A DNA stretch of 64,000 nucleotides from Halodesulfurarchaeum sp. GTDB taxonomy: Archaea > Halobacteriota > Halobacteria > Halobacteriales > Halobacteriaceae. Positions 32,877 through 63,170 of the stretch are shown piece by piece (within the stretch, counting starts at the first letter, position 1; the number at the start of each line of letters is the position of its first letter). The stretch spans positions 288,001 through 352,000 of the forward strand of contig JAXHNL010000002.1 in NCBI GenBank assembly GCA_034520565.1, read 5' to 3'. The notes under the pieces are model-generated. The model was given only the letters and a program-made list of their open reading frames with translations. It did not search any database and had not been told where the DNA came from. The translations under genes were made by a program, and so were the position numbers.

Positions 32877-33623
32877 TTACAGCGCGGAGGTCGGTTCGTC
32901 CACGCCCAGTTCGTCGACGTGCTCGCCCATCACGTGGGCTTCGGCCCGTCGCAGTCGGTAGGCGAGTGTGGAGCGCGGGACGTCGAGTCGCTCGGCGAGT
33001 TCGGCGACGTCGATCTCGCGTGGCGTTTCGTAGTAGCCGTGAGTCACGGCCGCCCGTAACGCTTCCCGCTGTTTGGCCGGCAAACCGTCGATGAGATCCG
33101 GGCCCGCCTTCGCGGTTTCGCCGGCCTCGGTCATCCGGCGCATCTCGAGGTCGGCACAGTCCCCGAGGGTCGCCTCGAGGGTGTCGACGAACGTCCGGAC
33201 GTCGCCCTCGCCGGAGTGGATGACCCGCCAGGTGTACTCGCGACCCCGGTTCAGCGTTTCGAAGAGAAGCCCGTCGCCGAGGGAGTCGATGGCGATATGG
33301 GGGACGGACACGCAGGTCACGCTGCGCTCCCAGTAGGAGTAAAGTACGAGTTCGTCGTCGGTGTGTTCGAGCACTTCGGTGGTCTGCTGGGCCCCGCAGT
33401 CGTCGGTCGCCAGGCAATCGGCGTAGTAATCGGCGGTCCTGACGGTCTCCTCGATAGCGTCGAGGGCTTCCGGGGAGCCGGTCGCGTGATCGACCCGCCA
33501 GAGACTCTCCGACGTGGCGTGGAGGGACAGCGAGCGGATGCGGGCCTCGGGGTGGGCCGCGAGCGTGTCCGCGACGGCGTTGCATCCTCGCTCGTAGGAC
33601 AGAGCGAAGACGAGTTCGCGCAT
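32877..33623 (-). CDS. HTH_10 (Bat-like) transcriptional regulator, probable regulator of the ATPase
   Basis: C-terminal QREALRAAVTHGYYETPREIDVAELAERLDVPRSTLAYRLRRAE; several Cys/His in the N-terminal domain. Confidence 0.88.
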   Translation of the reverse strand: MRELVFALSYERGCNAVADTLAAHPEARIRSLSLHATSESLWRVDHATGSPEALDAIEETVRTADYYADCLATDDCGAQQTTEVLEHTDDELVLYSYWERSVTCVSVPHIAIDSLGDGLLFETLNRGREYTWRVIHSGEGDVRTFVDTLEATLGDCADLEMRRMTEAGETAKAGPDLIDGLPAKQREALRAAVTHGYYETPREIDVAELAERLDVPRSTLAYRLRRAEAHVMGEHVDELGVDEPTSAL

Positions 33624-33761
33624 ACTCGGTCTACGGTCCAGAACGGTTTAACGGGTCGTTTCCTGACCCCCTTCCGTGGGGTCTGGGCCCGGCAACCGTC
33701 TCCGTTCGGGAACACTCCGGGCCAACGTTTATACGCCATAGCCGGACCAGTCCGGCTCGAT

Positions 33762-33860
33762 GCAGTGACCGCTTCCCGCCACGCGTTCGCGGGTGTGCGA
33801 CGTGTCGCGTGGTGGAGCCGACACGGAGTCGCCACCGTCACGGTGGCCGAATAATACACG
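33762..33860 (+). ncRNA. Candidate structured non-coding RNA
   Basis: TTTATA at 33728-33733, no usable ORF downstream, three complementary stem pairs (see findings). Confidence 0.45.
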
Positions 33861-33882
33861 TCGCCTGTTCGCCCCCGTCTCC

Positions 33883-35130
33883 CTACACCGGCTCGCCGAA
33901 GGCGTAGAAGGTGTTGTGGTCGGTGAGCTCGACCGTCACGCGGTCGCCCAGCTCGATGCCCGCGCTGTACTCGTCGGGGATCACGATCCGGTGGTAGGCG
34001 TCGTCGTAGCCCTGCAGCGAGCTGCCGGTCCCCGGCTCGGCCACGAGCACCTCCCGTTGCGAGCCGAGGAGATCCTCGTGAACTTGCCCGACGATCGTCT
34101 CCTTGCGCTCGGAGAGGTCCCGCGAGCGTTCCTTCTTGATCGTGCCACCCAGCCCCTTCATCTCGGCGGCGTCGGTCCCCGGCCGCTTCGAGAAGCGAGT
34201 GACGTTGATCGTCTCCGGTTCGACGGTCTCGAGGAGGTCCACGCTCGCCCGATGATCGCTCTCGCTCTCGGTGGGAAAGCCCACGACGAAGTCGGTGGCG
34301 AGGGTCCACTCATCGAGGATCCGATCGAAGGTGTCGACGATCTCCCGGAACTCCGCCACACTGTGCTGGCGCCGCATGTCCGCAAGCACGTCGTCCGAGC
34401 CCGACTGGACCGGCAGGTGGATGAAGTTGTACAGCTCCGGACAGTCGGCCATCAGGTGTGCGATCTCCTCGCGGATCGGATGAATCCCCCACGGGTTGGC
34501 CATCCCGAGCCGAACCCGAAAGTCGCCCTCGAGAGCACAGATGCCACGGAGGAGATCCGGGAGCCAGTGCTCGCCGTGATCGAGGCCGTAGACGCCCGTG
34601 TCCTGGCCGGTGATCCGGATCTCGCTGGCCCCGGCCTCGAGCAGCTCGCGAGCCCGCTCGACGTTTTCCTCGACCGGCGGCGAGTCGATTCGGCCGGTCG
34701 CGGCCTTCGTGATGCAGTACGAGCAGTCGCTCATGCAGCCCCGTGCGAGGGGAAGGATACCGATCACGCCCTCGAGGACCGGCTCGGTATCCGGCGTGAC
34801 GGTCGGGCACTCCCCGTTGCTCACCTCGTCGGGAACGTCGTCCCACCCCACGACAGCGGCGTCCACGTCCACCTGGGCGAACGCGGAGCCTTGCGCGAGG
34901 GCCATACACCCGGTGACGATCAGGTCGGCCTCGTCCTGGAGTTCCCTGGCCCGGCGGAGCATGTTGTCCTCGGTCGTCTCGATGACCGTGCAGGTGTTGA
35001 GAATGACCGCATCCGCGGCCGCCGGCGACTCGACGGGGCGGTGGCCACCGTCGCGGAGCCGCCGCTCGATGGCGCGGCTCTCGCCCCGGTTTGCCGTACA
35101 GCCGTAGGTTTCGATGTAGTACCGGGCCAT
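33883..35130 (-). CDS. tRNA t6A(37) methylthiotransferase (MtaB/MiaB-like radical SAM)
   Basis: ETYGCTAN, NTCTV, CMSDCSYC radical-SAM motif, HLPVQSGSD, C-terminal TRAM domain. Confidence 0.93.
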   Translation of the reverse strand: MARYYIETYGCTANRGESRAIERRLRDGGHRPVESPAAADAVILNTCTVIETTEDNMLRRARELQDEADLIVTGCMALAQGSAFAQVDVDAAVVGWDDVPDEVSNGECPTVTPDTEPVLEGVIGILPLARGCMSDCSYCITKAATGRIDSPPVEENVERARELLEAGASEIRITGQDTGVYGLDHGEHWLPDLLRGICALEGDFRVRLGMANPWGIHPIREEIAHLMADCPELYNFIHLPVQSGSDDVLADMRRQHSVAEFREIVDTFDRILDEWTLATDFVVGFPTESESDHRASVDLLETVEPETINVTRFSKRPGTDAAEMKGLGGTIKKERSRDLSERKETIVGQVHEDLLGSQREVLVAEPGTGSSLQGYDDAYHRIVIPDEYSAGIELGDRVTVELTDHNTFYAFGEPV

Positions 35131-35283
35131 TCGGTCGGCGAGGATAGCGGCCACGAGGTCAAAAGGGGCCCGGTCGGCCCACCCGATCGTCGTCAGCGAA
35201 AACCCCCGACAAATGGTAAAATTTAGCGCGTTTTCTCGGAGCCTGATAATGGCCGTCCGCCTTTTAGATCCCGTTGTTCAATC

Positions 35284-63051: not shown

Positions 63052-63079
63052 TTCGCGGCAGTCGGTTAGCAGGAACCGT

Positions 63080-63161
63080 GCCGGGGTGGCCGAATGGCAA
63101 AGCGCACGCCTGGAAAGCGTGTCCCCGTTAGGGGTTCTGGGTTCAAATCCCAGTCCCGGCG
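63080..63161 (+). tRNA. tRNA-Ser (anticodon GGA)
   Basis: Acceptor GCCGGGG/TCCCGGC, anticodon arm CACGC-CTGGAAA-GCGTG, long variable arm, T-loop TTCAAAT; CCA not encoded. Confidence 0.96.
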
Positions 63162-63170
63162 TCCACCGAC

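Follow-up and report, generated by a model that had tools for sequence, protein, structure and literature searches.

A candidate family of pseudoknotted small RNAs in haloarchaea with its own promoter and a two-codon mini-ORF

INTRODUCTION

Reviews state that archaeal small RNAs (sRNAs) show little conservation, in many cases not even among members of one genus (PMC4152357), and only 3 of 27 tested sRNAs of Haloferax volcanii were reported in more than 10 other haloarchaea (PMC3956466). The described systems closest to the locus presented here are the H. volcanii RNAs rancRNA_s194, IG1.7 and Hts4 (PMC6104027) and sRNA_61 (PMC12482152). According to these papers they are likewise intergenic, have their own promoter and measure 70–110 nt, and experiments place them on ribosomes without a protein product, whereas the family described here is known from sequence comparison alone. 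PMC6104027 puts the TATA box of s194 28 nt upstream of the start, a spacing called ‘optimal’ there, and reports this RNA in only eight other Haloferax species; it also locates the toeprint of the H. volcanii initiation complex at +15/16, and PMC12482152 describes untranslated H. volcanii sRNAs with ribosome occupancy. Our family is set apart from s194 and its companions by its class-wide occurrence, multiple copies, a covarying pseudoknot and a two-codon open reading frame (ORF), a distinction between descriptions and not between sequences. Some H. volcanii sRNAs are conserved in other haloarchaea, namely H225.2R (HVO_1727s2), hts10 and htsf_359 (PMC3956466) as well as HVO_2908s and H3.2 (PMC10927574), and the only family member of Haloferax-type genomes may be among these.

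Leaderless haloarchaeal mRNAs have the same promoter-to-ATG spacing and architecture as the pseudoknot RNA, which differs from them in that a two-codon frame runs into a stop and the remainder is a conserved fold. Viral recoding signals consist of a stop codon or slippery site, a spacer of ~6–8 nt and an H-type pseudoknot (e.g. the gag-pol read-through of MuLV). A stop codon, a 7-nt spacer and an H-type pseudoknot are likewise present in the haloarchaeal family, but no reading frame is conserved after the stop. CreT of Haloarcula is an RNA toxin that has a mini-ORF with repeated rare codons, lies beside cas genes and has creA as its partner; the family resembles it in that a small haloarchaeal RNA encodes nothing but a mini-ORF of a few codons. 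The family shares with the SAM-II, SAM-V and preQ1 riboswitches a hairpin loop paired to the 3′ tail and a high conservation of the core nucleotides; unlike these, it has no Rfam match, is not located upstream of a regulated gene and carries its own promoter and mini-ORF. None of the papers returned by our literature searches describes an RNA family that combines the pseudoknot and mini-ORF with the copy number, the range and the convergent placement reported below. A literature search for strings of the tail motif gave nothing relevant among the matches listed, and the main texts of two Weinberg motif surveys contain no haloarchaeal terms.

RESULTS

A putative RNA gene between two minus-strand genes

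We analyzed a stretch of 64 000 nt from a Halodesulfurarchaeum sp. genome (contig JAXHNL010000002.1, positions 288 001 to 352 000), hereafter called the window. Two minus-strand genes flank a gap of 259 bp (33624–33882), in which a sequence-only reading had proposed an unannotated, pseudoknotted plus-strand RNA with its own promoter. This core idea stood, several of its details did not, and all strings named in the reading were found in place in a sequence check. From the features listed below we infer that 33728–33875 on the plus strand is a stand-alone pseudoknotted small-RNA gene with its own promoter. The RNA is predicted to measure ~116 nt for the window copy and ~84 nt for a typical member of its family.

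32877–33623, minus strand: regulator gene of the HVO_2928_N plus HTH_10 type (Pfam), divergent, upstream of the RNA gene
33720–33735, plus strand: promoter, BRE-like GGCCAACG followed by the TATA box TTTATA (33728–33733), conserved in syntenic copies
33740–33757, plus strand: palindrome with the recurrent box CCGGACCA (33742–33749), between TATA box and start
33760–33768, plus strand: mini-ORF ATG-CAG-TGA of two codons at the putative transcript start, supported by conservation
33769–33775, plus strand: single-stranded spacer of 7 nt from the stop codon to P1, supported by the spacing in the family
33776–33785 and 33806–33815, plus strand: arms of hairpin P1 with a 20-nt loop (33786–33805), supported by covariation
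33789–33804, plus strand: 5′ strand of the pseudoknot, GCGGGTGTGCGACGTG, within the P1 loop, pairing with 33857–33872
33816–33856, plus strand: variable spacer L3, enlarged here by the P3 hairpin (33831–33847), from the orthologue alignment
33857–33875, plus strand: 3′ tail CACGTCGCCTGTTCGCCCC, at which the conserved element ends, with the 3′ pseudoknot strand, supported by conservation
33883–35154, minus strand: MiaB-like radical-SAM methylthiotransferase gene (Pfam UPF0004, Radical_SAM, TRAM), convergent

The regulator gene has a TTTAA box of its own (~33648–33652), and near its start the alignment of syntenic copies shows a conserved block, GGTTTAAC. On the other side, the stop codon of the MiaB-like gene lies 8 nt from the end of the RNA. 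The plus-strand promoter serves no downstream protein gene, as had been read. The predicted fold energy of 33755–33865 is −47.9 kcal/mol on the plus strand compared to −46.0 ± 3.8 in shuffled sequences (z −0.51), and z is −0.54 on the minus strand; 56 of 200 plus-strand and 47 of 200 minus-strand shuffles folded at least as well. As the fold energy is no better than that of shuffles, the case for a structure rests on the comparison of related sequences.

Syntenic copies and diverged paralogues

In a DNA search of 41 related genomes, four from the same genus proved to have conserved blocks of the gap at the corresponding locus. In the alignment of the syntenic copies a conserved stretch of ~40 nt, CC.CCACGCG(C/T)TCGCGGGTGTGCGACGTGTCGCGTGGTG, corresponds to P1 and its loop, and CACGTCGCCTGTTCGC is invariant in five syntenic copies. 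One of the orthologous genomes (G009) has a second, diverged copy elsewhere, which keeps loop and tail and in which the stem is changed by compensatory pairs (CCCGGATCGG with CCGGTTCGGG in place of the P1 arms of the window). Profile searches found at least 10 diverged paralogues in the genome of the window itself (E < 0.05), and the only features that these have in common are the TATA box, the CCGGNCCA box, CCATG-NNN-TGA/TAA, a covarying stem, the loop GCGGGTGTGCGAC, a short spacer and the tail GCCTGTTCGCC. This tail motif is conserved across the 76 family members that we collected, and conservation ceases just past it. A TTTT within the 40 nt after the tail was seen in only 2 of 75 members, so that the tail is followed by no oligo-T run.

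A covarying H-type pseudoknot

Covariation was counted on the 76 members in a covariance-model alignment, the pseudoknot pairs being absent from that model. For P1 and the pseudoknot together, 92.8% of 1742 cells hold standard pairs, compared to 78.6 ± 0.5% after shuffling, and none of 500 shuffles reached the observed value; when the partners were slid against each other by 1–3 columns, only 37–50% of the cells were paired. Changes on both sides were observed in 16 of 24 pairs overall, in agreement with a previous count that comprised 54 members. Hairpin P1, which had been read as 33777–33785 with 33806–33814, is real and extends to 10 bp (33776–33785 with 33806–33815): all 10 pairs show compensatory changes on both sides, with ~95% of the cells paired. 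Together with the syntenic orthologues, the paralogues and the members found throughout the class, this answers the question of homologues and covariation that the reading had raised.

In the window, 15 of the 16 pseudoknot pairs form, the partner positions summing to 67661, with a mismatch at 33796 × 33865. Within the family this helix shows changes on both sides in 6 of 14 pairs, and 91% of the cells are paired; the counts at covarying positions are AU 37, GC 30 and GU 5; CG 52, UA 12 and UG 7; and AU 24, GC 24 and CG 9. In the window, 33798 with 33863 and 33800 with 33861 are among the covarying pseudoknot pairs. A pairing between tail and loop had thus been rightly recognized, whereas its register with 33793–33796 was wrong, as the ACAC of the tail pairs with the second GUGU (33802–33805). 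Because the 3′ strand of the pseudoknot occupies 33857–33872, the conserved element reaches ~33875 and does not end at 33860, as previously assumed. A hairpin loop that pairs with sequence 3′ of its own stem places the predicted fold in the structural class of H-type pseudoknots.

In the half of the pseudoknot near the 3′ end, GCGGG.G with C.GUUCGC, there is hardly any variation and G-U pairs prevail. At one of its positions 39 of 73 members have U-G and the other 34 have no pair, a pyrimidine-C mismatch is kept in 73 of 76 members and one G-U pair in 72 of 73. This near-invariant half (GGGUG with CUGUU) may be a conserved internal loop or a binding site and not a plain helix. G-U combinations are far more frequent than A-C combinations (53 versus 15 in P1, 259 versus 19 in the pseudoknot), from which it follows that the folded strand is the plus strand, the same one that the promoter serves.

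Other proposed pairings fared differently. The stem P2 (33801–33807 with 33819–33825) is not conserved, even in the four syntenic orthologues, and P3 (33831–33847) is present as a local hairpin but represents a lineage-specific insert whose sequence is not conserved among the orthologues. Both the P2 partner and the P3 segment differ in sequence and length in every syntenic genome. Spacer L3, in which they lie, usually measures 4–10 nt in the family; among the orthologues, G009 and G011 carry other hairpin-forming sequences at this position, G008 has none and G007 has an insert of ~100 nt. A terminal stem between the 5′ sequence CGAUGCAGUGAC and the tail, suggested by single-sequence folds, is impossible in paralogues whose 5′ end reads CCCAUG. 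We also discarded a K-turn or K-loop in the loop, as judged by eye the position at which this motif expects an A holds a U.

Promoter and mini-ORF

The promoter block GCCAACGTTTA(T/A)A is among the conserved parts of the gap, GCCAACGTTTA being near-invariant in the five syntenic copies. A TATA-like box is found 29–33 nt upstream of the start purine in 65 of the 76 members, and at exactly 31 nt in 41 of them, a fixed spacing that supports TTTATA (33728–33733) as the promoter element it had been taken for. The palindrome at 33740–33757 is present as read and overlaps the recurrent promoter-proximal box CCGGNCCA; the upstream consensus of the family is aCcGGgCCA, and a box of this type occurs in 39 of 76 members. 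The composite of TATA box, CCGGNCCA and ATG was found 16 times in this genome (0–3 times in shuffles), and about half of these 16 sites precede ordinary leaderless protein genes of 142–433 codons. The TATA spacing puts the predicted transcription start at or beside the purine of the RUG triplet, as in leaderless mRNAs, and for the window copy we infer that the transcript begins at or next to the A of the ATG at 33760.

The triplets ATG-CAG-TGA (33760–33768) are present as the reading had noted; it had dismissed them, yet they belong to the most conserved features of the family. In the five syntenic copies ATG-NNN-TGA is invariant (block CGATG-NNN-TGA) and the middle codon varies. Among the 76 members the start triplet is ATG in 31, GTG in 26 and ATC in 15, and a stop stands in third place as TGA in 50 members and as TAA in 5. 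Start and stop are found jointly in 51 members, 15 (the ATC-CCT-CGA type) have neither and 10 have a single one of the two. The 51 members with both signals have 22 different middle codons, a C directly follows the stop in 41 of the 55 members that have it, and the spacer from the stop to P1 measures 7 nt in 64 of 76 members and 6–8 nt in 74. GTG is a weak start on leaderless haloarchaeal transcripts; it accounts for 26 of the 57 starts in the family.

The 15 members without start and stop indicate that the pseudoknot domain can exist without the mini-ORF. As the members comprise paralogues and orthologues and are not independent, the joint occurrence of start and stop may reflect few events. 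The alternation of A and G at the first base could merely mirror the purine at the transcription start.

Range and copy number

A covariance model built from six short copies and containing only P1 (R1) detected members in 9 of 12 genomes of the same genus, with 3–19 copies each, and none in G001 and G010 of this genus, which are both 99% complete. With the same model, 44 of 56 genomes of the family Halobacteriaceae, from 10 of 15 genera, contain 1–22 copies. In an even sample of the class we obtained matches (E up to 1e-5) in 83 of 151 genomes and 7 of 9 families, with only 2 of 35 genomes in one family (f13). A second model built from the 76 members (R2) matched none of 132 genomes from 21 other families of the phylum, compared to 8 of 18 haloarchaeal genomes of the same sample.

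A pattern scan of named genomes was followed by a check with the model, in which, among the matches listed, 20 of 21 haloarchaeal loci matched, as did 1 of 59 bacterial loci, marginally; the pattern matches were dominated by chance in GC-rich bacteria. The matches listed include members in Halobacterium, Halorubrum, Haloferax, Haloquadratum, Halobaculum, Halobellus, Salinigranum, Halorientalis, Haloarchaeobius, Halorussus, Halegenticoccus and Natronomonas. Haloferax-type genomes (genus g32; L084 and L151) appear to be single-copy; their copy is flanked by a DUF6249 gene and by a convergent gene for a HAD hydrolase, close to rtcB. The 9-mer of the tail is by itself unspecific, with 354 matches in the genome of the window. 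Judged from these searches, the family is multi-copy and, among the genomes searched, confined to haloarchaea, and we hold it to be very probable that the RNA of 33728–33875 is a member of a genuine structured RNA family.

Comparison with known RNA classes

The family is absent from Rfam 15, the RNA family catalogue searched. At gathering score the whole window yielded only a tRNA (63080–63161) and nothing at 33728–33875; ARAGORN, applied for tRNA and tmRNA, likewise reports from the window only a tRNA-Ser (63079–63165), in agreement with the earlier view that the element does not resemble a tRNA. When 33550–33950 was searched at E up to 10, the only match was sR-tMet on the minus strand (15.1 bits versus a gathering score of 50, E 7.3), and five canonical members in 19 kb gave no match at E up to 1.

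Archaeal H/ACA guide RNAs carry an ACA box near the 3′ end and a pocket-bearing hairpin with a K-turn or K-loop. An ACA-box guide had been considered for this locus, and the idea fails because the ACA is not conserved: AATAATACAC (33850–33859) is replaced by ACTCCAC, ACGCCAC and CTGTCAC in orthologues, the conserved 3′ motif is GCCTGTTCGCC and no H/ACA model matches. In C/D box sRNAs the C (RUGAUGA) and D (CUGA) boxes form a K-turn; this class was rejected as well, since the sR-tMet match is at chance level and on the opposite strand and the middle triplet of AUG-NNN-UGA is free. A toxin RNA like CreT does not fit a single sense codon with 22 values among 51 members, nor the housekeeping neighbours. 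A cis-acting riboswitch or 5′ leader is opposed by the orientation of the downstream gene, which runs towards the RNA in 41 of 49 members and in the same direction in 8. Translation past the stop into a protein is unlikely, because the spacer varies in length and the tail therefore lies in different frames in different copies. Mobile repeats of the MITE or REP type have near-identical copies, terminal inverted repeats and a variable presence at orthologous sites. The copies found here are too diverged for this, sharing only motifs within a genome, and the window copy is too stably placed, being syntenic in four congeners; no terminal inverted repeats were evident in the aligned copies.

Neighbouring genes

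Among the 49 members with a called downstream gene, this gene is convergent in 41 and co-directional in 8; the orientation of the upstream neighbour is evenly divided (24 versus 24). A convergent ORF of at least 90 aa that ends between −40 and +150 nt from the tail was found in 50 of 76 members, mostly at 0–40 nt. In the genome of the window the neighbours comprise genes for a MiaB-like protein, AdoHcyase, a HAD hydrolase, a PAS histidine kinase, Elp3 and a class-I (LeuRS-like) tRNA synthetase. The Pfam counts among the 50 neighbours, many of which are orthologous loci counted repeatedly, are Radical_SAM 10, AdoHcyase 6, SPP 4, UvrC 3, HAD 3, class-I aaRS 2 and RtcB 1. As a whole the neighbours are heterogeneous, with 66 Pfam families among the 50.

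Several of the convergent genes serve tRNA modification, tRNA charging or SAM recycling. A T-box-like match of the middle codon to the neighbour was considered and rejected: the copy beside the LeuRS-like gene has TCC and that beside the MiaB-like gene has CAG. The convergent placement could also stem from selection against read-through into co-directional genes, without a functional link.

DISCUSSION

We propose that a ribosome would load directly on the 5′ AUG of the leaderless-type transcript. The pseudoknot would start at +17 from the A of this AUG, just beyond the +15/16 edge of an initiating haloarchaeal ribosome, and the stop would be read in a UGA-C context. After docking and reading no more than one codon, the ribosome would terminate or pause against the knot, leaving the RNA untranslated. 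UGA-C is a weak terminator context. The predicted leaderless start, the knot at +17 and the UGA-C stop are our reasons for suggesting this step. The function would reside in the pseudoknot domain, and its target, proposed on account of the tail-to-tail position, would be the 3′ end of the convergent gene, which in the window is the MiaB-like one.

We lean by a small degree towards this description as a whole, in which a non-coding RNA engages ribosomes and has its effect at the 3′ end of the convergent gene. For its parts, we consider the chances evenly balanced that the mini-ORF is used by ribosomes, and it is rather doubtful that the convergent gene is the target. The 15 of 76 members without both signals imply that ribosome docking is not essential for every member. 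A more far-reaching version is improbable, although not fanciful: throughout the class, the two-codon ORF of ‘ribosome-docking’ pseudoknot RNAs would park a ribosome at the knot, and the availability of ribosomes, initiator tRNA or release factor would gate folding and hence antisense transcription or pairing at the convergent 3′ end.

The same observations can be read with the ribosome in a lesser role. Possibly, if with less weight than the reading we prefer, the pseudoknot works without ribosomes, the AUG is a by-product of a leaderless promoter and the stop ejects ribosomes before they unwind the fold. Such a defensive stop would agree with start and stop being kept or lost jointly (51 members with both, 15 with neither), with the intact pseudoknot in the members that lack them and with the ordinary leaderless protein genes that the same promoter architecture drives in this genome. 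It accounts less well for the retention of ATG or GTG in 57 of 76 members at class-level divergence beside a free middle codon (22 codons), which points to selection for the start itself, and neither the fixed 7-nt spacer nor the C after the stop (41 of 55) would be needed merely for stopping translation. Somewhat less probable still is a cis-antisense module, in which the fold serves as a 5′ handle for a longer transcript that extends into the convergent gene, or pairs with the 3′ UTR of that gene, and tunes the stability or 3′-end formation of its mRNA or blocks read-through, the ribosome features being secondary. The convergent downstream gene in 41 of 49 members, the usual distance of 0–40 nt from the tail to its stop and the scarcity of an oligo-T terminator past the tail (2 of 75 members have TTTT in the next 40 nt) are what such a module would lead one to expect, and the conserved asR3 at the 3′ end of tpi in Pyrobaculum offers a precedent (PMC4152357). 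However, conservation stops at the tail, the neighbours are heterogeneous (66 Pfam families among 50), the downstream gene is co-directional in 8 of 49 cases and a simple antisense role leaves the conserved pseudoknot unexplained.

Selection on the fold beyond its pairing needs, as seen in the G-U pair kept in 72 of 73 members and the pyrimidine-C mismatch kept in 73 of 76, would also suit an aptamer that, with its invariant G-U-rich segment, binds a small molecule, in the manner of H-type pseudoknot riboswitches, or a protein and might gate antisense read-through. Riboswitch-controlled antisense RNAs are known in bacteria, and several convergent neighbours in the genus use or recycle SAM (MiaB-like, Elp3-type, AdoHcyase). 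We nevertheless regard an aptamer as unlikely: no riboswitch model of Rfam matches at E up to 1 or 10, the RNA is outside any 5′ UTR position, up to 22 copies per genome stand beside unrelated genes, and the SAM link consists of three orthologous locus types in one genus. That the element acts at the DNA level or from the opposite strand, whether as a repeat, as an operator or as the 3′ UTR of the convergent gene or its terminator, is very improbable, even though it abuts gene 3′ ends, is multi-copy in a REP- or MITE-like manner and has in P1 a palindrome that could fold on the other strand too. On the other strand each G-U pair would become an A-C mismatch, and G-U exceeds A-C by 259 to 19 in the pseudoknot and 53 to 15 in P1, the promoter at fixed spacing is directed along the plus strand, and the copies are old and diverged, with the window copy syntenic between species, unlike recent mobile repeats. 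A small protein gene on the minus strand (33729–33824, 31 aa, GTG start) has even less to commend it. Its frame is open in the window and three orthologues with PRDTSHTRER in common, but this stretch corresponds to the loop, whose conservation at the nucleotide level is the reason that the frame stays open. The flanking codons vary freely, G009 and G011 have no evident start, the compensatory changes in the P1 arms of paralogues would rewrite the peptide and no promoter was seen for the minus strand.

With strong covariation, 1–22 copies per genome and members in most haloarchaeal families sampled, the pseudoknot family would rank among the few broadly conserved structured regulatory RNAs in Archaea beyond housekeeping and guide RNAs. 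Its layout of start, one codon, stop and pseudoknot is a testable link to the ribosome-associated ncRNAs of Haloferax and to ribosome-occupied untranslated sRNAs, and because Haloferax-type genomes appear to carry a single copy, a clean knockout is feasible. If the ribosome-docking reading is true, it would represent a translation-sensing regulatory device of a kind undescribed in archaea.

Coding potential and other RNA genes in the window

The only match that Rfam or ARAGORN returned in the window was a tRNA gene. On the plus strand, a long open frame runs antisense to the convergent MiaB-like gene:

63079-63165 (+), tRNA-Ser (GGA)
33793-35226 (+), open frame of 477 codons

This frame is the same as that of the mini-ORF (ATG-CAG-TGA), from which only the TGA separates it. 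We read it as a shadow ORF, because GC-rich DNA often contains long antisense frames and because the frame of the tail differs among the other copies of the RNA family.

Promoter-proximal box and convergent neighbours

A GC-rich box, CCGGNCCA, lies downstream of the TATA box and ahead of the start; it is found in the RNA family and upstream of several ordinary leaderless protein genes:

window 33742-33749, box
contig C2 of the same genome at 632966, 772538 and 1054814, box
contig C1 of the same genome at 74748, box

A composite pattern containing the box occurred 16 times, compared to 0-3 times in shuffles. Possible roles of the box are as operator for a shared regulator or as a promoter element specific to the lineage.

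In the window's own genome, 4 of 6 identified convergent neighbours are tRNA- or SAM-related, a count from a small sample that is phylogenetically redundant across genomes:

window 33883-35154, MiaB-like enzyme
C2:733501-734781, AdoHcyase
C2:1137834-1139606, Elp3
C2:764301-767135, LeuRS-like synthetase

Variation and distribution of copies

In the related genome G007, the orthologue of the window copy has a spacer between hairpin P1 and the tail that holds an insert of ~100 nt made of tandem units of roughly 27 nt, each with CCGTCGGTT(C/T)C, similar to the tail motif. Some copies carry a tandem pair of tail motifs, GCCTGTTCGCC ... GCCTG(G/T)TCG. The copy at C2:1273704-1273788 has its first tail motif as the 3' arm of P1.

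L004:1354-1565 (-), G007 orthologue
L021:2040-2170 (+), two tail motifs
L022:1880-2044 (-), two tail motifs
L019:1430-1546 (-), two tail motifs
C2:383438-383574 (-), possible further copy with family promoter, ATG-TAG and CCCCTGCTCGCC tail

In this last candidate, which the covariance model did not find at E up to 1, the stop immediately follows the start.

Neither covariance model (R1, six short copies, P1 only; R2, 76 members) matched G001 or G010, two 99% complete genomes of the same genus, whereas most of their congeners have 3-19 copies each. This within-genus contrast is usable for phylogenetic profiling.
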